The position numbers and the translations under genes were made by a program. From UHGV virus genome UHGV-1353844: a stretch of DNA of 64,000 bases. One strand, 5' to 3'. Shown here one piece after another: positions 5,578 through 64,000 of the stretch. The notes below the pieces were generated by a model. That model did not search any database. It was not told the origin of the DNA and saw nothing but the letters and a program-made list of their open reading frames with translations. This stretch comes from a virus. The stretch's first letter is position 1; every line of letters starts with the position of its first letter.

Positions 5578-5612
5578 GTTTACCTACCTCCTTTCGGAGG
5601 TAGGTACTTTTA
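5578..5612. terminator. Bidirectional rho-independent terminator (TACCTACCTCC-TTTC-GGAGGTAGGTA) with A-tract upstream and T-tract downstream
   Basis: Perfect 11-bp stem between convergent genes (5558 + end, 5614 - end); coordinates approximate. Confidence 0.6.
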
Positions 5613-5613
5613 T

Positions 5614-6444
5614 TTATTTCGCCAGGTCTGCTTCTTTTACAAAGATGCCGTCGGCGTTCAGGTAACCTTTACGGTCTTTGATTTCGTGCCAGGCTAGAGA
5701 GAAACAATGACGAATGTCAAGACGATAGTAGAGAGCCAGTTTTGCAAGGCGGTACAAAGCCCAGTTAAGCTGGTCGAACCCAGCATCGGAGCGAATAAAT
5801 GCGGTAGCGAAGATTTCGGTAGCGTGGAGATACAAATGATGTGGATACCCGTTGTCATCAAAATGTTCTTCAACGTCAGCGACATCATCTACCTGCAATT
5901 GTAAACCGTGCTCGATGATTTCAGCGGTTGTCATTTCTCCAGACAGTTTGTCTTTACCCAGTTCCAGGATGTTTACCAGAACCACTAACGCATCACCGAT
6001 CCCATCCATGATCAGTTCAGGTTTGTTTTTACTGATACCTGTTGCGATTTCACCAAACTCTTCAAAGAATTTCGTGATTTGAGTTTCCAGTTTACCGTTA
6101 TCGAGGATGCCGCGTTCTTTAGACCAGCCTTTAACATGTTCTGCACAGTTCGCAATAGAATAGACCGGAACCGACACGGTGTGCATCACAGTACCGTTAT
6201 AAACGGCGTCGGTAAGTTTAATCGGTGCTTCAATCGTTTCGATGTCCAGTTCTTGAGTGCCGGTATGACGTTTACCTTCTACACGAATACGGTTGGTGCC
6301 AGGGTTTACACCGATTGTGTAAATGGCGTCGAACTGAATTGCCTTCTCATTCAGAGCACGCAGTTGTGCGTTAACTTCTTCCAGGTGCTGACCAGGATTA
6401 ACTACGATGTTGTAAATAGCGTTGATGTCAAAACGTTCGCCCAT
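5614..6444 (-). CDS. MazG-like nucleoside triphosphate pyrophosphohydrolase (276 aa) with N-terminal extension containing a short internal repeat (IYNIVVNPG / IYTIGVNPG)
   Basis: MazG-type motifs FFEEFGEIA (EExxE-like) and ELIMDGIGDALVVLVNILELG; C-terminal LAWHEIKDRKG. Motif-level call only. Confidence 0.45.
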   Translation of the reverse strand: MGERFDINAIYNIVVNPGQHLEEVNAQLRALNEKAIQFDAIYTIGVNPGTNRIRVEGKRHTGTQELDIETIEAPIKLTDAVYNGTVMHTVSVPVYSIANCAEHVKGWSKERGILDNGKLETQITKFFEEFGEIATGISKNKPELIMDGIGDALVVLVNILELGKDKLSGEMTTAEIIEHGLQLQVDDVADVEEHFDDNGYPHHLYLHATEIFATAFIRSDAGFDQLNWALYRLAKLALYYRLDIRHCFSLAWHEIKDRKGYLNADGIFVKEADLAK

Positions 6445-10389: not shown

Positions 10390-11049
10390 TTACATACGGG
10401 TAACTGAATCCCAGTAATCACGAAGATATTCTTGGTCTTCAGGATCTTTTGGCGTAGCCGGAATATGGCCGTCAAACTCAAACGGAATTACAGATAGCAC
10501 ATCCGCAATCTCGTAACGCTCGACTTCCAGTTCAACTTTCACCCAGTCACCAACGCTGGTGCTACTACGCATCTCAGTGATGAGATCGTTGAAGTCACCT
10601 GAAACTTCAATTGCAGGGTGTCCGGTGGTGATACTGAAAATATCAATATCCCAATGCTTAGCCCCTTTATCGGCTAATTCACCCGGCTCTAAGTGAATAC
10701 GTTTCACCAGGTGAGCCAAATAACCGTCTTTGTAAAAAGAGAGTGCGGAACTAATCCCGATATCCGAATTCTCTTCAACCTTTCCGTCTTGGAACTTACG
10801 CTTAAGCGTTAGCTGTGCCGTACCGTCTTCTTTAATACGGATACGACGACGTCCACCTTCTATCGGCATGAGAATGTCCATGAACATTTTGGCTTCTTGT
10901 GCGTGGAGCCAGTCCCATCCCGCTTGCGTCGGTTTTACCCAAACGCAGTATTCCTTTTCGACTTCGTGTTTAATGGACTCACCAGCAACACGAATGATTT
11001 CTTCTTCCTGCGCTTTATCCAGCCGCGCTAGGGTATCGAACAATCCCAT
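10390..11049 (-). CDS. Hypothetical protein (219 aa)
   Basis: ORF followed by terminator. Confidence 0.5.
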   Translation of the reverse strand: MGLFDTLARLDKAQEEEIIRVAGESIKHEVEKEYCVWVKPTQAGWDWLHAQEAKMFMDILMPIEGGRRRIRIKEDGTAQLTLKRKFQDGKVEENSDIGISSALSFYKDGYLAHLVKRIHLEPGELADKGAKHWDIDIFSITTGHPAIEVSGDFNDLITEMRSSTSVGDWVKVELEVERYEIADVLSVIPFEFDGHIPATPKDPEDQEYLRDYWDSVTRM

Positions 11050-56322: not shown

Positions 56323-59300
56323 ATGCCGAGAGAAGACGCGGCGCAGTTTAACGGTACGCTAAGCACAGCGACGTACCCTAACCGATTTAACGTGGTCATT
56401 CCGCCTGAAGGACCTTTTTATCGTATCGGATTAAAACTCACAGTAGCCGACGATACCGCGCCTAACGGACGTCGTACTCTGATTGAGGGGTTGGACTACT
56501 ATTTAGGCTATTACTTTAAAGAACTCGCAGAAGCTGAACAAGATCAGATTTACGGCGGGTTTATGTTGCTTACTGCAACAGAAATCGAATATGAGATTTT
56601 AGGGGTAGCACGTCAATACCGTGTACCGCAATCTGAAATCGGGAAGTTCTTAGTTCGTACTGACCTGAAAGACCCACGTAACGTGGACTGGTCTGAACTA
56701 ATGGCGTATGCGCCGGTTATTCAGCCTATCGACCCGCCTGCTAACTTAGAAGAAGCGATTCTGAGGGATGAGGTTGTTAAGGCGTTAGAAGACATTCGCA
56801 AGAAAATCATCAAACGTTCTACGGAATTAGATGCTGCGTTCAGTGAAGTCACTAACTTGATTTACGAGAACGGTAAAAAGGTTTTCGACGAAGAGTTATA
56901 CCAGCATCACCGTAACCCTAACGCGCATCATTATACCACTGATGACATTGCTGCTCTCCCGGTATTAGGTCGTGCTGTTGACGCTACAAAAGCGTTTGGG
57001 TTGACGATTGACGAGTTGGCTACGCTGATGGGTTCAGCGGGTATTGAGCAATCGGACGTTGACCAGTTAATGGGTGAAGCCCTCGGCACCGTTTACGGTC
57101 GATGGGGTACCACGAACGGTAATGAATTAACGTTTAAAACGTCAGGTGGCCACATCATCAGTATTCGTGGTGATAAGTGGTTAATTACCTCGCCACAACC
57201 GTTGGTGATTAAAGCAGACCAGGACAACAACGAATCGGGTTTAGCGGTTGAATTCAGTGCGGGTCTGAATACGCTTTGGGTTCACTCGGGGTCGGAACAG
57301 GACGTATTAGCGCCAGTTTATAACTCCGTGTACCTGGTTACACCAGAAATGGTGAACATGTATCTGACGTCAGTAACGTTGCTTGAAGCAAACGCGTATT
57401 TCAAAGCGTCAGACACTGTAAAACCGTACGGTACCGCAAAACAGACTAACCCGGTTACGTTAAACGCGAATATTCCCACGGCGTCCGAATCAGTTTATGG
57501 GTTGTTCTCGATTACGAATATCTCTACGTCTGCGGCGTTAGGTACTGCTATCTCCCAGAAAGCTGTAACAGAATTAAAAGACCGCTTGGACTTGTACGTT
57601 GACGATGACTATACCGTTAACGGTAAAGGGTTTGTTAAAACAGGCGACAATATGGTGTTAACCTTAACGAAAACCGATTTCGGTATCGATAAGATGGATA
57701 ACACCATACCGAGTGATAAGCCTGTGACAAAAGCGTTAACGAACGTGTTGAAAAACAAGAGTTTGAAAACGCACACCCACACCACTGCTGACTTGGATAA
57801 CGTCCCGATTGGTAGTGCAACGGTTGACGGTATCTTACAGCTCTGGGATGCAATTGACACCACTAACGATAAAGCTGTCACGTCGCGTCAAGGCTGGTTG
57901 TTCGCAAAAGAGATTAAGAAGGTCTCTGATAAACTGAATACCATCTTACCGGCGTGGACGGTAGGTGGAGCGAAATTCGGTAACAAGAACTTCTTACCTA
58001 TCCCAGCGTTAGGTAACTACGCAGGCTATACCAAAAACCAGTCCTACCAGAAAGGGGTTGTTGGGTATCAGCAGGGTAAGGTTTATTCGCTCCGTAACGG
58101 TTCTAACGGCGTGCCGGGTACGGAAGCTATTTATTACGGCTATGCTGACATTGACACGTCAAACGCGTTTGTAAATCCGCAGCAGACCTCAGTGAAATAT
58201 CACCCTGCCGGGATGAGTAAATATCCTGGGGTGACCCTAATAGCGATATTGATCGGTGGCCAGGAAGCGATTATTTGCCTGGGTTCTGACAATAACCGTT
58301 ATTTGGTGCTGTTTAATGGCTCGATGGACCACACTAAGCACACGGTGGTATGTCGCGTTACGATGCCCGTGTACCGTAACGGCAACCCCAGTGGTACTGT
58401 GGAACAAACCTGGAACCCGTGGCCGGAAGCTGACGATGTCGTGTTGGTTGAGGACTACGTTTATCTTCTCCGTTCAACGGTAAATAACTCCGCTTACGCC
58501 GTAGCAGCTTGGCGTCTACGTAAGGCCGATTTGTCTACTAACACTACGTTAGAATTTGAACGTGTAACTCTAACCGGCGAGATGGGACAATTCGGAGATA
58601 ACCTCTGCTTGCGTATTGGTCAGAAAACCGAAGAGTCGCAAACGGGTCAATTCTTTACATATCTCACACCGGAGGGTCGTGCTAAATGGACGATCGGGCG
58701 TAACTTTGTTCACGGTCCAGAATGTAACCACGCGTGTGCTGTGCGCGATAGCGTGATTCGTGTGAACCATATGCCTACCGTGTGGTTTGCAGCGGCCGAC
58801 GGTACGACGATTAATTTCCTTCAATGGGCAACAAGTTTTACAATCGATACGTTGACGGGCAAGGTTACGTTAGAAGGCCGCGAACGCTTCCCCATCAAGG
58901 CTGATGCTACTACTACACTCTCGTTCGCAGATGGTTCAACTGTAGGAACCAATCGTAAGTGGGGTGGTGGCCAGGCAAACAACCGTTGTTTCGCGACGTA
59001 TGCTAAACCCAACGGTACAGGAATGATGCTTTCCTGTTGGCAAATTGCCGATGCGGACCAAATGCCTAATGTTTCTATTAAGAGTACACAAGGCAGAGAG
59101 CTTTTCGATTATCTGCGTTACGATAACCCAAACAACACCTCGGGCGAAGGAACGTTTACCTGGGATAAAGGCCGTGGCTCCATTTACACCATCGGTTTGT
59201 CTTATCCAGTAGGGATTGGTGGTTCGAATAAGGTCTGGTTATCGAACCCTCGTAACCGTTACACGATCGAAGTGGAAGTTGATCCGAACAAACCTTACGA

Positions 59301-61509
59301 TGTTTCTGGGTATAGTGGGTACGGTCCGAACAACAACCGTCGTGAAGTCGATCCAACGCTTTACGAGCAGCTTAGCTGTATGGCTGCGTGCATGATCCCT
59401 GAGGAGCGTCATGGACAGTTGAACGGCTGGTATTTGACCAAAGCAGAAACGTTCCCGTATCGTAACATCTACGGTAACTTCGCATTGTCTTCCGAACGCT
59501 TAACGCTAGAAGAAGCCGATCGGCAGAAAATGATTCGGATGATCGTTGACGGTGCGCCATCTGGTCAAGCAAATGGTTACGCGAACGAACGTATTAGTGC
59601 TGCACATCAAACCGGTAATGCATTGTTTGCTCTTTGGATGTTGGGTATCAACACCGTGTGCGAATTTGACTTGTTGCAAGTTTCGTGCATGAAAACCTCA
59701 AGTAACGGACGTCGAATTCTTGACATCTATTACTTCATGGTGAGCCCATCTAAAGAGAACGGCTACTTACGTTTCAACTCAGCCACCTTTAAGTTGGTGG
59801 ACTGGTTCTTAGACCTCGATTATGGTTTAAGTTATCAGTCACTAAATGGGGGAGCGGGAGGTAAAACGAGGCGCGTGGGGCAGCCTATTTTTGCATCTGC
59901 GGATGGAACTAACTTCGGTATCTGGTTACCTTATACGTTAACTACCCGAAATATCGGGGACTTAAACGCCCTGGGCTACGCTGCTAAATATACCTTCGAC
60001 CCTGGTTCAGGTTGGACACGCGTTGCAGGTAAATCACAGTTACGGCAGATGGCCCCTGAACATAGACCAGAATCTGGGTGCTATATGGGTGCCGGTGATT
60101 GGGACAAGATGGCGTTGATTTACTCTAAAGCTGACCGTGTTTTCTGTTCAGGTAACGCGTATACAGCCGCAGAGTTCGTTAACGACACGACGTTCTCAAC
60201 CGGAGGTCAGGCGGTTATTATTGCCGGTGTGGAAACAGCGGAAGGTTGGATTCTGTATTTGACAGAAGAAGTCAAATTAGATTTCGGTAGCAGCAGTTAC
60301 ACACTCCCAACGTGGTCTGTGGATTTAAGCAGTGAGTTCCCATCCAATCACGCTAACCAGACGTTCTACGTGCACGCTGAGGTGTCGGGTTCTACCGCGC
60401 AATACCGCATCGGTTTGGAGCAGTTAGCCGATACCTCAACAAGACTGTTCGTTGGGACAGTAACCACCGATTCCAGCCGTATTACTGGTATCAGTATCGA
60501 CAAAGTAAAACGTTTGGGTCGTGTGAAAGAACTGGAAGACCACGCAGCAATTATCGACCAACACGATGTAGCAGCAGCGTTTGACAGAAAGACGGGTCCT
60601 CTATTAACACTGGTTAACAAGCCCGTTAAAGCACCTACGGCGTCTGCGTCGAAAGGTGAAGGGTATGTTGACGGTCAGAAATGGGGTTCACTGTCCGGCA
60701 TTACGACGCGTCCTAAGTTACCAATTCAGGAAACGTATTCGGGTTATAAGAGCGTGGCCAGGGTAGCGTATGAGAACTGCGCTGACCAATTCTGGCAGAA
60801 AGCGGTAGCTGCTAACATTGCGACAGCCACTGCTTCTGAGAACATGCAGGCAGCGTCTGCGAACATGAAATGGATTGGTGCGTATACGAAACCGACTACC
60901 GGAACGAATGCTTACTTAGCATTGAGTTTGCGTGTTCAGGTGCCAGGTAATCCAGGAACGGCGAATCGTGCTCTGAAACTACGACTTGCTGCACCAACCG
61001 GTATTGTTGAAGCTCGGTATGCATTAAACCAGGCCGGTGGTACGATGACTGAACAAACGGTAACGTTAACCGCCAACCAGTACCTGGAAAAAGAGCACAG
61101 TGGGTTTAAACCTGCCGAGGAGGTTCGTGTTCATGTCACGTTCGTTATTCCGAAGAACGAGTATGAAAGTTATCGTACGAAGTTTGGGGCGGTACAGTTG
61201 ATTGACGTTGAATCGAACACCATCGTCAAGCAGGCTGATATCGACACACCGTTCTTTGTCTTTACGGACACTGAACTGGCTGCGCAATCTGGTTTGGTGT
61301 ATAAAGCGGTCAAGGGTCAGTTTGACAATCTCCCGAGTGAACCTACGCTCATTGTCCGAGATGGTCAGACCGGAACTAACCCACCGGTGAAATCGTCTTA
61401 CGCTAACGGTACGCTAACCGTTTACGTAGCGACCGCGTACGATGCCGTGAATCCGGCGGAAACTCGCGATATCGACAAACTCCAGTTCAATCTTATGTTT
61501 ACATCTTAA
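56323..61509 (+). CDS. Tail fibre protein (1728 aa) with T7 gp17-like N-terminal domain
   Basis: NRFNVVIPPEGPFYRIGLKLTV...EGLDYYL; AGGAG RBS. Confidence 0.6.
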   Translation: MPREDAAQFNGTLSTATYPNRFNVVIPPEGPFYRIGLKLTVADDTAPNGRRTLIEGLDYYLGYYFKELAEAEQDQIYGGFMLLTATEIEYEILGVARQYRVPQSEIGKFLVRTDLKDPRNVDWSELMAYAPVIQPIDPPANLEEAILRDEVVKALEDIRKKIIKRSTELDAAFSEVTNLIYENGKKVFDEELYQHHRNPNAHHYTTDDIAALPVLGRAVDATKAFGLTIDELATLMGSAGIEQSDVDQLMGEALGTVYGRWGTTNGNELTFKTSGGHIISIRGDKWLITSPQPLVIKADQDNNESGLAVEFSAGLNTLWVHSGSEQDVLAPVYNSVYLVTPEMVNMYLTSVTLLEANAYFKASDTVKPYGTAKQTNPVTLNANIPTASESVYGLFSITNISTSAALGTAISQKAVTELKDRLDLYVDDDYTVNGKGFVKTGDNMVLTLTKTDFGIDKMDNTIPSDKPVTKALTNVLKNKSLKTHTHTTADLDNVPIGSATVDGILQLWDAIDTTNDKAVTSRQGWLFAKEIKKVSDKLNTILPAWTVGGAKFGNKNFLPIPALGNYAGYTKNQSYQKGVVGYQQGKVYSLRNGSNGVPGTEAIYYGYADIDTSNAFVNPQQTSVKYHPAGMSKYPGVTLIAILIGGQEAIICLGSDNNRYLVLFNGSMDHTKHTVVCRVTMPVYRNGNPSGTVEQTWNPWPEADDVVLVEDYVYLLRSTVNNSAYAVAAWRLRKADLSTNTTLEFERVTLTGEMGQFGDNLCLRIGQKTEESQTGQFFTYLTPEGRAKWTIGRNFVHGPECNHACAVRDSVIRVNHMPTVWFAAADGTTINFLQWATSFTIDTLTGKVTLEGRERFPIKADATTTLSFADGSTVGTNRKWGGGQANNRCFATYAKPNGTGMMLSCWQIADADQMPNVSIKSTQGRELFDYLRYDNPNNTSGEGTFTWDKGRGSIYTIGLSYPVGIGGSNKVWLSNPRNRYTIEVEVDPNKPYDVSGYSGYGPNNNRREVDPTLYEQLSCMAACMIPEERHGQLNGWYLTKAETFPYRNIYGNFALSSERLTLEEADRQKMIRMIVDGAPSGQANGYANERISAAHQTGNALFALWMLGINTVCEFDLLQVSCMKTSSNGRRILDIYYFMVSPSKENGYLRFNSATFKLVDWFLDLDYGLSYQSLNGGAGGKTRRVGQPIFASADGTNFGIWLPYTLTTRNIGDLNALGYAAKYTFDPGSGWTRVAGKSQLRQMAPEHRPESGCYMGAGDWDKMALIYSKADRVFCSGNAYTAAEFVNDTTFSTGGQAVIIAGVETAEGWILYLTEEVKLDFGSSSYTLPTWSVDLSSEFPSNHANQTFYVHAEVSGSTAQYRIGLEQLADTSTRLFVGTVTTDSSRITGISIDKVKRLGRVKELEDHAAIIDQHDVAAAFDRKTGPLLTLVNKPVKAPTASASKGEGYVDGQKWGSLSGITTRPKLPIQETYSGYKSVARVAYENCADQFWQKAVAANIATATASENMQAASANMKWIGAYTKPTTGTNAYLALSLRVQVPGNPGTANRALKLRLAAPTGIVEARYALNQAGGTMTEQTVTLTANQYLEKEHSGFKPAEEVRVHVTFVIPKNEYESYRTKFGAVQLIDVESNTIVKQADIDTPFFVFTDTELAAQSGLVYKAVKGQFDNLPSEPTLIVRDGQTGTNPPVKSSYANGTLTVYVATAYDAVNPAETRDIDKLQFNLMFTS

Positions 61510-61549
61510 TGACTCGAGACAAGGACGTCTCGAATAAAGGAGAGTGGCC

Positions 61550-62749
61550 ATGGCCTCCATTGTTTATCAATATCCTTTAGATTTAACGGGCTCGCTAACG
61601 TCTAACGCTGTAGAGCGTCAGATTACGTTAGGTACAGGTAAAGTAAACCGTGCTTTTGCTTTTCCTGACGGCCCGTTCTTTGCGGACACGTTCCGTTTAC
61701 GTGTTGCTAACCGACCGGATGCAACCTACGAACGTGGTACCGATTATGAGTTGATTTTTGCACACCCGACTTATGAAAAGCTGACTAAAAACCGCGAGAT
61801 TGTTATGGCGGTGGTGGTCACTAACACAGCGATTCCAACAGATATTACGGTATCTGCGCAGGTCGTTGGTGGTCCACAGTCTGCGAACATTGTGGCTATC
61901 GAACAGGCGATTGCTGAATTAAACCTCGATAACCGTACGATTGCGTTTAAAGACCTGCGTAACGTACCGGATACATTCCCATCTGCACCGACGTATAAAG
62001 ACGTGGGTGACATCTACGGTTTTGAATATATCATTACCGTATTGGCGGGTATTAAAGATGCGATCAGTTCCGGTGACGCGGTACAGTTAGAGAACATTAA
62101 AGCGATTTTAGAAAGCCTGAAAAATGACTTCTTAGACGCTTTAAATGCACACATCAACGCAACCGGTAACGTTCACCATCTTGATATTCATCAGGTTAAC
62201 GGGTTAACAGAAACTGAAATCCGTGCGCTTATTCGTGACGTCCAGTCTGCCATCGACGCAACGATTACGGAAATCAATGCACTGAAGAAAGCGGACGAAG
62301 CTTTAGGTAAGCGTATTGACGCTGTTGTCAACTCTCTGGAAGCGTGGAACGACCAACTTAACGTGGTTGCTCAAAACTACCAGAAAATGGCCTTAGCGTT
62401 AGCGAACCTGAACTCGTTAGTGTTACAACTGCAAAAGAGCATCAACGATTTAAACACAAAACTGAATCAGGTTATTCAGCGTGTTGCCGCGTTAGAGCAA
62501 CAGGGTCAAGAAACCGATCAGAAAATCGATCAGGTACAACAGAACCTGGATGCGCTTAAACAGCAAGTTAACAATAACACGAACGCAATCAGTCAAGCGA
62601 ACCAGAACCTACAAAACCACATCGCGGCAGATAACCCGCACACCGGTTATCTCCACAAGAGATACGGTGGTGTGGTTCAGGCCCCAGTACACGTTAACGC
62701 TAACCTGACGTCTCGTGATGACGTACAGGCGGAAGCGGGTACGAAATAA
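61550..62749 (+). CDS. Short tail fibre-like protein (399 aa from ATG at 61550; track start GTG 61544) with T7 gp17-like N-terminal domain and Gln/Asn-rich coiled coil
   Basis: NRAFAFPDGPFFADTFRLRV...RGTDYELI; heptad-like LNQVIQRVAALEQQGQETDQKIDQVQQNLDALKQQV. Confidence 0.55.
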   Translation: MASIVYQYPLDLTGSLTSNAVERQITLGTGKVNRAFAFPDGPFFADTFRLRVANRPDATYERGTDYELIFAHPTYEKLTKNREIVMAVVVTNTAIPTDITVSAQVVGGPQSANIVAIEQAIAELNLDNRTIAFKDLRNVPDTFPSAPTYKDVGDIYGFEYIITVLAGIKDAISSGDAVQLENIKAILESLKNDFLDALNAHINATGNVHHLDIHQVNGLTETEIRALIRDVQSAIDATITEINALKKADEALGKRIDAVVNSLEAWNDQLNVVAQNYQKMALALANLNSLVLQLQKSINDLNTKLNQVIQRVAALEQQGQETDQKIDQVQQNLDALKQQVNNNTNAISQANQNLQNHIAADNPHTGYLHKRYGGVVQAPVHVNANLTSRDDVQAEAGTK

Positions 62750-62758
62750 TTTAATTAC

Positions 62759-62790
62759 AGGAGGAACTATGCTTATGGCTGGTTCCTCCT
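62759..62790 (+). terminator. Terminator hairpin (AGGAGGAAC-loop-GTTCCTCCT) followed by T-rich tract
   Basis: Immediately after stop of the 399-aa fibre gene; coordinates approximate. Confidence 0.55.
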
Positions 62791-62814
62791 CTATTTTAAT
62801 TTTAAGGAAGCGTA

Positions 62815-63207
62815 ATGGCGATTAGTGTTAAACAAATGCGCGATCGGTTAACCACAGTAGAAAATACAGTCGCTACCGGCCCTCGTGTCAATGCGCAGGT
62901 CGCATCGAAAGCGCATAACGCGGCAGATTCGTTTTCCGGTTGGACGCCTTCGCGTTTAGACTGCGGAGGAGCGTGTTCGTGGACATGTTCTAACGGATGT
63001 ACTCACGGTTGCTCGAGCTGTTCAGGAAACTGTTCAGCGTCGTGCGTGGGTAGCTGCTCTTCGTCCTGTGGGGGCAACTGTTCGGGATGCTCTGGCTGCT
63101 CGGGGGCTTGTTCTAGCAGTTGTACAAGTACCTGTACTGGAAGTTGTACTGGGCGTTGTTCGCATAACTGTTCGGGTGCTTGCTCCGGCGGTTGCTCTGG
63201 TCGATAG
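62815..63207 (+). CDS. Cys/Ser/Gly/Thr-rich repeat protein 1 (130 aa): about 49-aa conserved N-terminal region then about 80 aa with about 21 Cys mostly spaced C-x3-C
   Basis: MAISVKQMRDRLTTVENTV...LDCGGACSWTCSNGCTHGCSSCSGNC...CSGGCSGR; AAGGAAG RBS. Confidence 0.6.
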   Translation: MAISVKQMRDRLTTVENTVATGPRVNAQVASKAHNAADSFSGWTPSRLDCGGACSWTCSNGCTHGCSSCSGNCSASCVGSCSSSCGGNCSGCSGCSGACSSSCTSTCTGSCTGRCSHNCSGACSGGCSGR

Positions 63208-63609
63208 GGGGAAGAAATGGCGGTTGGATTAGCTGAATTAGTAAGACGTCTTAATAACGTCGATAGTATCGCGCTGAAAAACACCACAGGTGTACAGAAC
63301 TACATCCGCAATAAGGCCACGAATAACGCGGACCTGTTCGGTGGTCGGAATCGTGCGCATTATGACTGTGCGGGCACGTGTTCCTTTACCTGCTCGAGTT
63401 GCTCTGGTGGCTGTACAGGGAACGCGTCTGGTGGTTGCGGTTCTTCATGCTCTGCAAACTGTACGTCAGGGTGTTCAAGTAGCTGTTCAGGGTGTTCGGG
63501 GAGTTGTTCGGGTGGGTGCGCTAATGCGTGCTCGGGCACTTGTACGGGCGGCTGTACAGCATCGTGCTCCAGTAGCTGTACCGGTGGCTGCTCGTCGTGC
63601 ACAGGACGA
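62962..63609 (+). repeat. Degenerate 12-bp-period coding repeat (TGY-TCN-GGN-NNN type) underlying the Cys-rich proteins
   Basis: Seen directly in the nucleotide sequence; it also generates long antisense ORFs rich in PEQ. Confidence 0.5.
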
Positions 63610-63612
63610 TAG
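63217..63612 (+). CDS. Cys/Ser/Gly/Thr-rich repeat protein 2 (131 aa), paralogue of protein 1
   Basis: MAVGLAELVRRLNNVDSI...YDCAGTCSFTCSSCSGGC...CSSCTGR; GGGGAAGAA RBS 9 nt after stop of protein 1. Confidence 0.6.
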   Translation: MAVGLAELVRRLNNVDSIALKNTTGVQNYIRNKATNNADLFGGRNRAHYDCAGTCSFTCSSCSGGCTGNASGGCGSSCSANCTSGCSSSCSGCSGSCSGGCANACSGTCTGGCTASCSSSCTGGCSSCTGR

Positions 63613-63622
63613 GAGGTGAGAA

Positions 63623-63832
63623 GTGATTTCCCTCAAAAATATTCGAGACAGAATCGGTCAGGTTGAAGGCTACATTAAAACCACAGATGCGAATAACTAT
63701 ATTGCTAATCAGGGTACGGTGTCCTCAACGAATAACTTGGCAGGATTACCGTTAACTCACTATAACTGTAATGGGAGTTGTAGCTGGGCGTGCAGTGGTA
63801 GCTGTAGTAAAGGTGCAGGGGGAGGCAGGTAA
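63623..63832 (+). CDS. Cys-rich repeat protein 3 (69 aa), short paralogue with only 4 Cys; GTG start
   Basis: MISLKNIRDRIGQVEGYIKT...YNCNGSCSWACSGSCSKGAGGGR; AGGAGG RBS 6 nt before GTG. Confidence 0.55.
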   Translation: MISLKNIRDRIGQVEGYIKTTDANNYIANQGTVSSTNNLAGLPLTHYNCNGSCSWACSGSCSKGAGGGR

Positions 63833-63953
63833 GTCTTCTGGTGGTGGTTCCATACCAAGCCCTTCGAAACCATCCTTGATAACAAAGCTGCTGTTTATGT
63901 TGGGTCTGAGCTAGACGCTAAAGATACTACCCGTGAAATAATTGGAGTAATCA

Positions 63954-64000
63954 ATGAAGAACGATCTACATCTTGCATATACGACAACGTTCAATCATCC
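63954..64000 (+). CDS. 5' end of a further + strand gene (MKNDLHLAYTTTFNH...), truncated by window end
   Basis: GGAG RBS 6 nt upstream of ATG; approximate start. Confidence 0.3.
   Translation, partial: MKNDLHLAYTTTFNH

Follow-up and report, generated by a model that had tools for sequence, protein, structure and literature searches.

Cysteine-repeat genes behind the tail-fibre block of an SPN3US-like jumbo phage as candidate fibre-tip modules for radical-SAM modification

The 64,000-nucleotide stretch UHGV-1353844, called the window and meant in full, comes from an unsequenced relative of SPN3US, the Salmonella jumbo phage related to phiKZ. Near its end lie three open reading frames (ORFs) for Cys-repeat proteins, which we name p1, p2 and p3. 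We consider it probable that p1–p3 are structural fibre-tip modules stitched by radical S-adenosylmethionine (radical-SAM) thioether chemistry, and not free peptides. The observations behind this are that the genes are real and conserved, that a cassette of recurring composition accompanies them, that Cys-repeat genes and the cassette enzymes co-occur across phage groups, that their setting is a tail module and that the same unit is fused to fibre proteins. A megablast search of the window against phage genomes gave zero matches; there is, therefore, no close sequenced isolate.

The three Cys-repeat genes

The genes and their parts are as follows.

62815–63207, plus strand: p1, a 130-residue CXXX-repeat protein with 21 Cys and an ATG start; first Cys at residue 50; composed of an N-terminal helical region, a C-x-G-x-C-S-W motif and a Cys-repeat tail
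63217–63612, plus strand: p2, a 131-residue CXXX-repeat protein with 20 Cys and an ATG start; first Cys at residue 51
63623–63832, plus strand: p3, a 69-residue short paralogue with 4 Cys and a GTG start; first Cys at residue 49; N-terminal region and C-x-G-x-C-S-W motif as in p1 and p2, without the long repeat tail

The first-pass annotation, made from the letters of the window, had described three co-oriented ORFs, each with its own ribosome-binding site. We confirmed all three at the same coordinates, on the plus strand. A purine-rich, Shine-Dalgarno-like stretch precedes each gene (AAGGAAG, GGGGGAAG and GGAGGTGAG). The genes are closely spaced without overlap, the stop-to-start gaps being 9 nucleotides between p1 and p2 and 10 between p2 and p3. 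Translational coupling is plausible. The description of about 21, 20 and 4 Cys, roughly every fourth residue, also held in our counts. Spacing between successive Cys is exactly 4 for 17 of the 20 gaps in p1, 15 of the 19 in p2 and 3 gaps in p3. Among 10,000 shuffles of each Cys-rich part, this regularity was reached by none for p1, none for p2 and 9 for p3. As had been noted, the cores are almost all C/S/G/T/N/A (86–98%) and each protein ends in GR. The Cys-rich parts contain no Asp or Glu, and Lys and Arg are nearly absent from the cores.

A 12-bp periodic DNA repeat had been proposed as well, and this did not stand. Tandem Repeats Finder detected only two short, weak arrays in the region (scores 34 and 63). 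Because codons for Cys, Ser and Gly are mixed within the p1–p3 repeats, the periodicity belongs to the protein and not to the DNA. In an AlphaFold2 model of p2, made from a 16-sequence alignment (predicted local distance difference test, pLDDT, 46.6), only N-terminal helices were predicted, at residues 5–19 and 23–32.

To judge whether the genes are real, we compared the window with its near-identical relative L009. Across p1–p3 there are 36 synonymous changes and 1 non-synonymous change (12 and 0 in p1). The p1 and p2 proteins are identical between the two sequences and p3 differs by one residue. Against L010, the dN/dS ratios of p1–p3 are 0.04–0.11. Purifying selection is strong in the N-terminal and Cys-rich parts alike. 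Since nearly all substitutions are synonymous and dN/dS is low, we conclude that p1–p3 are real genes. Long ORFs of 80–109 residues also overlie the Cys-rich regions, at 63003–63287 (minus strand), 63360–63602 (minus strand) and 63290–63619 (plus strand). We rejected these reverse-strand and +1-frame ORFs (94, 80 and 109 residues), given that nearly every substitution is silent when read in the Cys frame. They are by-products of biased codon composition.

The same region of SPN3US (L001, from NC_027402) carries p1–p3 at 5598–5990, 6001–6405 and 6421–6627 of L001, none of them annotated. In NC_027402 numbering these are complement 143828–144220, 143413–143817 and 143191–143397. The sole coding sequence called there, gp166 (ACQ60_gp100, 6074–6409), is the +1-frame ORF across p2. 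In most GenBank records p1, and often p2, lies under no annotated feature; for most Seoulvirus genomes the feature at the p1 match is 'none'. Our analysis would add three overlooked genes to SPN3US, a genetic model phage. The lesson for annotation is that fibre modules contain Cys-rich ORFs of low complexity which gene calling overlooks or places in a wrong frame.

The family, which the first-pass annotation did not recognise, exists as phrog_6085, a profile whose function is indeed listed as unknown. It matched p1 (1.6e-36), p2 (1.6e-42) and p3 (1.6e-25), covering nearly the full profile length for p1 and p2 and its first half for p3. No other match in the PHROGs scan was convincing. A Pfam search with p1–p3 gave zero matches even at E ≤ 10, and sequence searches of the PDB with p2 and with the fibre protein of contig L018, described below, returned nothing meaningful. 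Four homologues (P0004, P0019, P0020 and P0022) carry a precomputed Pfam label, PF27846.1, which lies outside the Pfam set searched and may already describe the Cys-repeat module.

The order p1, p2, p3 is kept in Seoulvirus (SPN3US), Erskinevirus (Asesino) and Wellingtonvirus, and also in Cronobacter phage CR5, an unclassified Derbicusvirus. Across these four jumbo-phage genera p1 has 127–132 residues, p2 has 131–142 and p3 has 68–69, and the C-x-G-x-C-S-W motif is invariant. On 19 metagenomic contigs p2 is the same residue for residue. Protein 3 had been thought to look contracted. Because its length is 68–69 residues in all four genera, sequence comparison instead indicates an old, conserved paralogue with no recent contraction. 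Variation in repeat number, also suggested earlier, does not fit the near-constant lengths of p1 and p2. Repeat slippage was rejected on two grounds: the DNA itself has no tandem repeat, and the proteins keep their lengths.

The radical-SAM cassette and its distribution

The window ends before the radical-SAM genes, and our data on the enzymes come from relatives (L009, SPN3US and others). In L009 and SPN3US, the downstream order is a 295-residue protein (gp165), a 305-residue radical-SAM enzyme (gp164) and a 444-residue radical-SAM enzyme (gp163). A 196-residue protein and a DUF4376 tail-type protein follow. The first-pass annotation had advised looking outside the window for modifying enzymes. 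Of those it named, radical-SAM enzymes do lie directly beyond, in L009 and SPN3US. Scans of the downstream genes of both phages against Pfam, NCBIfam and PHROGs gave radical-SAM, DUF4376 and unknown families only, with no LanB/C/M, LanKC or LanL. No MNIO enzyme was found in the Pfam and NCBIfam scans, and no protease, transporter or exporter was among the matches to the three collections.

For the 444-residue enzyme the best family is TIGR04115, 'radical SAM peptide maturase, CXXX-repeat target family' (2e-36), followed by the ranthipeptide maturase PapB (6.5e-32). Maturases from other phage fibre modules fall on both sides of the TIGR04115 cutoff of 350 bits: L016 (471.7) and L015 (424.7) are above it, L021 (300.6) and L018 (157.1) below. 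Taken as sequence scores, these form a gradient from L016 and L015 down to the jumbo-phage enzyme. The latter keeps CX3CX2C, GGE and a seven-Cys SPASM pattern. Indeed, C41/C45/C48, GGE and the seven C-terminal Cys are invariant across the jumbo, L018, L016, L015 and L021 enzymes; the Pfam SPASM model was detected weakly, in L016 and L015 only. In a profile search the closest solved structure was 5WGG (5e-38), with the alignment beginning at residue 94 of that entry. The PDB labels 5WGG only 'Radical SAM domain protein'; we take it to be CteB, the SCIFF thioether maturase, whose N-terminal domain for peptide recognition lies ahead of the aligned part. The jumbo maturase has about 20 residues ahead of CX3CX2C and is without an N-terminal peptide-recognition domain.

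The 305-residue enzyme also keeps CX3CX2C. The accessory gene for the 295-residue protein occupies 10763–11650 in L009, and its equivalent in the window starts at 63955. A model of the protein is confident (pLDDT 88.8; predicted template modelling score 0.84), with no structural match in the PDB or BFVD beyond its orthologue. There is a weak sequence link (8.5e-5) to a 238-residue protein at the same position in T7-like phages.

The enzymes and the repeat proteins travel together. The phage collection has 63 records with the maturase and 61 with the p1 N-terminus, about 55 of the latter being full-length matches, and the two genes lie 3–4 kb apart in the same jumbo phages. When distant viral contigs were retrieved via the Cys-repeat peptide alone, a maturase homologue adjoined it in all of them. 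The pairing recurs in jumbo myoviruses, in T7-like podoviruses and in prophages of Firmicutes, and its setting is always a tail-fibre module. In jumbo phages p1–p3 directly follow homologues of gp167–gp169 and precede DUF4376 and tail assembly chaperone genes. In T7-like podovirus contigs a gene for the gp17 N-terminal domain comes first; after it stand, in turn, a small collagen-like gene, the gene for the Cys-repeat protein, one for an accessory protein of about 240 residues, the radical-SAM enzymes, an SLT lysozyme and terminase. One of these contigs, L023 (9330–11336), has the two radical-SAM enzymes fused as one 668-residue protein, in which the C-terminal half is the part matching the jumbo enzyme (3e-63). 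In another, L025 (8639–9451), the enzymes are separate, and relative to the accessory protein the genes stand in a changed order. Among bacteria, the nearest relatives of the phage maturases, in Anaerobacterium chartisolvens and two Bacillota metagenome-assembled genomes (MAGs), sit in prophage tail modules. Here, the order is a baseplate-J homologue, a fibre gene, the Cys-repeat protein, two small genes, the maturase, an amidase and a holin. The conserved cassette comprises at least one Cys-repeat protein, an accessory protein of 240–295 residues, a short radical-SAM enzyme and a radical-SAM/SPASM enzyme; p1–p3 would be its substrates.

This distribution bears on one alternative, namely that p1–p3 form a fibre tip or adhesin in which disulfides or metal sites arise after release, while the neighbouring radical-SAM enzymes act elsewhere. 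Cys-rich repeats with Thr, Ser and Gly can fold into solenoids braced by disulfides, a build known from antifreeze proteins of insects, and the fibre context and fusions apply equally to such a tip. However, Cys-repeat and maturase genes are direct neighbours in four or more phage groups that are unrelated, some of the loci having been found via the Cys-repeat peptide alone. Moreover, two of the maturases are bona fide members of a family that NCBI defines by its CXXX-repeat targets. We regard this alternative as very unlikely.

Other maturase relatives, in Flavobacteria/Bacteroidota MAGs (L029, L030 and L080) and in Bacillota (L031, L032, L034, L037 and L049), adjoin targets of other types. 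Some are TAT-signal proteins with acidic C-E-G-x repeats. Others are tandem peptides of 53–75 residues that share the leader 'MNNLFGFKK...NGY'. The enzyme family would therefore serve small peptides and fibre proteins alike.

SPFM phages seemed at one point to be natural knock-outs of the cassette. We rejected this as an artefact of scrambled GenBank records. In LR535901.1 (L106, Salmonella phage SPFM1), positions 90428–108553 consist of consecutive 60-nucleotide blocks that are 92–100% identical to SPN3US and in the same orientation, but in reversed block order, as if the lines of a FASTA file had been inverted. Since the record is scrambled, its gene annotation is meaningless. Several sister SPFM records give fragmentary matches of a like kind.

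Fibre fusions and the proposed maturation

A pointer to the role of p1–p3 is the company that the module keeps within single proteins. On L018, a 213-kb viral contig, a 568-residue fibre-like protein ends in '...YTCGGSCSWSC...CKGR', with the motif and repeat of p1–p3, and two radical-SAM genes come after its gene. Out of 1.84 billion representative proteins, a profile search drew 801 relatives, of which 111 have E ≤ 1e-10. The best 150 hits and the earlier ones together include 143 proteins with a Cys run, and in 92 of these at least 100 residues stand ahead of the run. These N-terminal parts include coiled-coil shafts, collagen-like repeats and segments of the form 'YxGNGST..F.F.F' or 'G.W....Y...D.V', the last two of which we take to be fibre-protein types. 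Besides the L018 protein, examples are P0052, P0053, P0058, P0091 and P0037. When 95 long relatives were scanned against PHROGs, phrog_6085 was detected in 81. The annotated families listed beside it are tail, tail fibre, tail collar and collagen-like minor tail proteins, with one 'lipase' as the exception.

The first-pass annotation had described the first 48 or so residues as a conserved N-terminal region and likened it to a leader. The N-terminal region of p1–p3 has predicted helices and an 'N-x-x-x-L-x-G-x-x-x-x-Y-x-C' junction. Because profile alignments to the long proteins reach upstream of the first Cys, into a region matching this N-terminus, the '48-amino-acid leader' is probably not a leader but a segment of a fibre. 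In other phages the whole unit, N-terminal region included, sits at the C-terminus of long fibre proteins. In one case, P0064 shares its N-terminus with the Cys-repeat protein P0008 and has a different C-terminal domain; this is the usual tip swapping of receptor-binding proteins. Some relatives are giants: P0034, P0035, P0038–P0040 and P0044 (1580–1800 residues) have 145–168 Cys in C-x-x-x register over more than 1000 residues. P0164 differs from its near-twin P0092 in an apparent insertion of the Hint/intein type ('CFKAGTLIETIHG...'), located where the Cys-rich region begins.

These fusions weigh on a second alternative, that p1–p3 encode conventional RiPPs (ribosomally synthesised peptides with post-translational modifications). 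On this account the Cys-rich core, once modified, would be cleaved from its 48-residue leader and released at lysis as a bacteriocin, signal or inhibitor of host defence. Certain features are as expected of a RiPP. The nearest named families of the maturase are RiPP maturases, three tandem paralogous precursors are typical of RiPP clusters, and the bacterial maturase relatives next to tandem 53–75-residue short-leader peptides or TAT-signal peptides have the classical precursor layout. However, the unit of 'leader plus core' is embedded at the end of fibre proteins of 400–570 residues, its position is always a tail-fibre module, and no conserved cleavage motif separates 'leader' from 'core'. 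Further, the genes downstream of p1–p3 gave no protease or transporter among their Pfam, NCBIfam and PHROGs matches, and the maturase, which aligns with 5WGG only from residue 94 and has some 20 residues before CX3CX2C, is without the N-terminal domain for peptide recognition. We think the RiPP account unlikely. The first-pass annotation had offered both a RiPP-like and a fibre-tip or adhesin interpretation. The fibre tip fits better, because the unit is embedded in fibre ends and no protease or exporter accompanies it. RiPP-type enzymes are nearby, as that interpretation foresaw, and it is the leader that probably falls away. The data fit RiPP-type enzymology acting, as sequence suggests, on a structural protein.

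A third alternative is that p1–p3 are assembly factors, serving as scaffolds or chaperones for the big fibre proteins and discarded afterwards. Small genes downstream of fibre genes often encode chaperones, and the annotations of CR5 and Wellington place tail assembly chaperones a few genes beyond the module. Against this, the module is covalently part of the fibre C-terminus in many phages, an objection softened by intramolecular chaperones that are C-terminal and cleaved off. In addition, the Pfam and PHROGs scans of p1–p3 gave no similarity to known chaperone families. We judge such a role highly improbable.

Hence, our preferred interpretation remains a fibre tip matured by radical-SAM enzymes, and it may work as follows. 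Late in infection, in the reducing cytoplasm, the N-terminal helices and the C-x-G-x-C-S-W motif would assemble p1–p3 with each other or with neighbouring fibre proteins. The same elements would present p1–p3 to the enzymes. Conservation of the trio invites the idea that the N-terminal helices may form a heterotrimer. The SPASM enzyme would then move along the C-x-x-x repeats, taking a hydrogen atom from a neighbouring residue and closing a Cys thioether ring each time, a chemistry modelled on the nearest characterised relatives. The short radical-SAM enzyme and the 295-residue protein would be partners in the cassette. In this way an unstructured Gly/Ser/Thr-rich tail of about 80 residues could become a ladder of small rings. 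Such a ladder would make a stiff tip, resistant to proteases, reduction and redox change, at the distal fibre end where the host is contacted.

Several points count against this interpretation. The modification, its thioether nature and the presence of p1–p3 in virions are all inferred from sequence. The jumbo-phage maturase is far below the TIGR04115 cutoff of 350 (126.2 bits for L009 and 125.6 bits for SPN3US). AlphaFold2 gives the Cys-rich part of p2 no confident structure (pLDDT near 40). PapB and QhpD chemistry uses Asp and Glu as acceptors, and the Cys-rich parts have neither; they are rich in Thr and Ser, and SCIFF-like Cys-Thr links may form instead. The SPN3US proteomic papers that we found make no mention of p1–p3. 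This absence is weakened because the ORFs are missing or mis-framed in the annotation. Cores with almost no Lys or Arg should also be hard to detect by tryptic proteomics. Finally, the maturase family appears to serve small-peptide precursors in bacteria as well, and p1–p3 may accordingly have a role as released peptides. Our literature search, which did not extend to subscription journals, found no description of p1–p3, of the role of the enzymes in SPN3US-like phages or of any radical-SAM-modified virion protein.

More tentatively, the principle may extend beyond jumbo phages. It is possible, though we would not yet favour it, that many tailed phages, namely jumbo myoviruses with SPN3US among them, T7-like podoviruses and prophages of Firmicutes, build the distal fibre end from a module with Cys at every fourth residue, turned into a thioether ladder by dedicated phage radical-SAM enzymes in the cytoplasm. 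If so, RiPP-type radical chemistry would here be seen making a virion structural protein for the first time, as far as the literature that we found goes. Radical-SAM peptide chemistry would make a part of the virus particle and not secreted natural products alone. It would be a new route to covalent bracing for a protein that folds in the cytoplasm, whose reducing conditions preclude disulfides. Of the enzymes that databases group as 'CXXX-repeat peptide maturases', a sizeable share would belong to a phage fibre-maturation system, and the two radical-SAM genes of unknown role in SPN3US-like phages would be explained. The modules would be a possible determinant of host recognition or particle stability. 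For the CXXX-repeat maturase family there would be natural substrates, a readout by phage adsorption and, in p3, a minimal substrate with four Cys.

Genomic surroundings and comparison with known systems

The other features around p1–p3 in the window are listed here.

56323–61509, plus strand: a 1728-residue tail protein that belongs to the upstream fibre block and corresponds to SPN3US gp168 (phiKZ gp131 paralogue family)
61550–62749, plus strand: a coiled-coil virion structural protein of about 400 residues, homologous to SPN3US gp167; last gene of the fibre block
62759–62803 (approximate), plus strand: a hairpin and U-run between the fibre block and the Cys-repeat genes
63833–63954, no strand: a variable spacer, where relatives have a 96-residue ORF or its 3' half only
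63955–64000, plus strand: the first 15 codons of the 295-residue accessory gene (SPN3US gp165, phrog_8030), cut by the end of the window

The 1728-residue ORF holds the same position as SPN3US_0168. The gp168 protein has been described as a tail protein resembling the baseplate-periphery protein phiKZ gp131 (PMC5105663). The protein of about 400 residues matches SPN3US 'virion structural protein 20' by tblastn (76.6% identity over 100% of the query) and phrog_2163 at 7e-103. Its start is GTG at 61544 in the ORF list, giving 401 residues, or ATG at 61550 according to genes called in relatives. The first-pass annotation had placed a terminator behind this gene, and the hairpin and U-run agree with it. 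The RNA fold has an energy of -20 kcal/mol (z = -3.36), and none of 200 shuffles was equally stable. A simple terminator scan overlooked this hairpin; from its sequence it is likely to be an intrinsic terminator or attenuator.

Alignment between the window and L009 breaks down at the spacer 63833–63954. A tblastn search with the 96-residue ORF of L003 (10783–11073) recovered all of it from L008 and a copy truncated by the contig end from L004. Only the 3' half is left in L009 (about 10620–10745) and L011, and the window has none of it. The spacer is apparently a deletion scar, to judge from these comparisons. Among relatives, the spacer after p3 is an indel hot spot. Several metagenome contigs with p1–p3 genes stop directly after p3, and in one metagenomic variant, P0138 (210 residues), p3 is fused to an extra stretch of about 140 residues.

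We compared the system of the window with those already described. The His-Xaa-Ser system is built in a similar way, with a repeat peptide (HxsA), a pair of distinct radical-SAM enzymes (HxsB and HxsC) and one further protein. Of the phage enzymes, the large one matches HxsB (7e-21) and the small one HxsC (1.5e-12), both far below the cutoffs. Its repeat, however, is H-x-S, and that system is uncharacterised too.

T-even gp38 is a small Gly-rich distal protein, encoded directly after the fibre genes, that takes the tip position in host recognition. Like gp38, p1–p3 are small, of low complexity and directly behind fibre genes. A sequence relation to gp38 was not found in the Pfam (E ≤ 10) and PHROGs searches with p1–p3. 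Unlike p1–p3, gp38 is not known to have a Cys ladder or dedicated modifying enzymes.

QhpD, a radical-SAM/SPASM enzyme, gives QhpC several thioether cross-links that start from Cys and stay within the molecule. As the small gamma subunit, QhpC is kept in quinohemoprotein amine dehydrogenase, and it is a precedent for RiPP-type chemistry on a structural subunit. Among the families matched by the phage maturases is TIGR03906, that of QhpD (1e-15 to 1e-33). In contrast, the QhpC sequence is unrelated, the acceptors of QhpD are Asp and Glu, and QhpD and QhpC have no known link to viruses.

The ranthipeptide and SCIFF maturases, PapB with its substrate freyrasin and CteB, share CX3CX2C and the seven-Cys SPASM domain with the phage enzyme. 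PapB closes one small ring per repeated C-x-x-x-D motif and is the nearest mechanistic analogy to a C-x-x-x ladder. Unlike PapB and CteB, the phage enzyme is without an N-terminal RiPP recognition element. The repeats of the window are also without the C-x3-D/E acceptors of PapB substrates, and the substrate is apparently a structural protein and not a short peptide.

The closest counterpart is the CXXX-repeat radical-SAM system (target TIGR04114, maturase TIGR04115 and TIGR04117), which was defined in silico; its biochemical characterisation was not found in the literature searched. Both systems have a target with Cys at every fourth residue and an adjoining radical-SAM/SPASM enzyme, for which TIGR04115 is the best family. 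In the phage, a second radical-SAM enzyme and a 295-residue protein without a fold match are added. The targets differ too: in the window they are 69–131 residues long with a fibre-type N-terminus, and in other phages whole tail fibres, whereas the bacterial CXXX-type members that we saw are small leader-core or TAT-signal peptides. Against TIGR04114, p1 scores 19.5 bits and p2 17.6 bits, below the cutoff of 20, and p3 has no match. By curated cutoffs, the phage of the window is outside the CXXX-repeat system, its target just below and its enzyme far below. Sequence comparison nonetheless suggests that the system of the window resembles, and is distantly homologous to, both the CXXX-repeat system and the ranthipeptide/SCIFF maturases.

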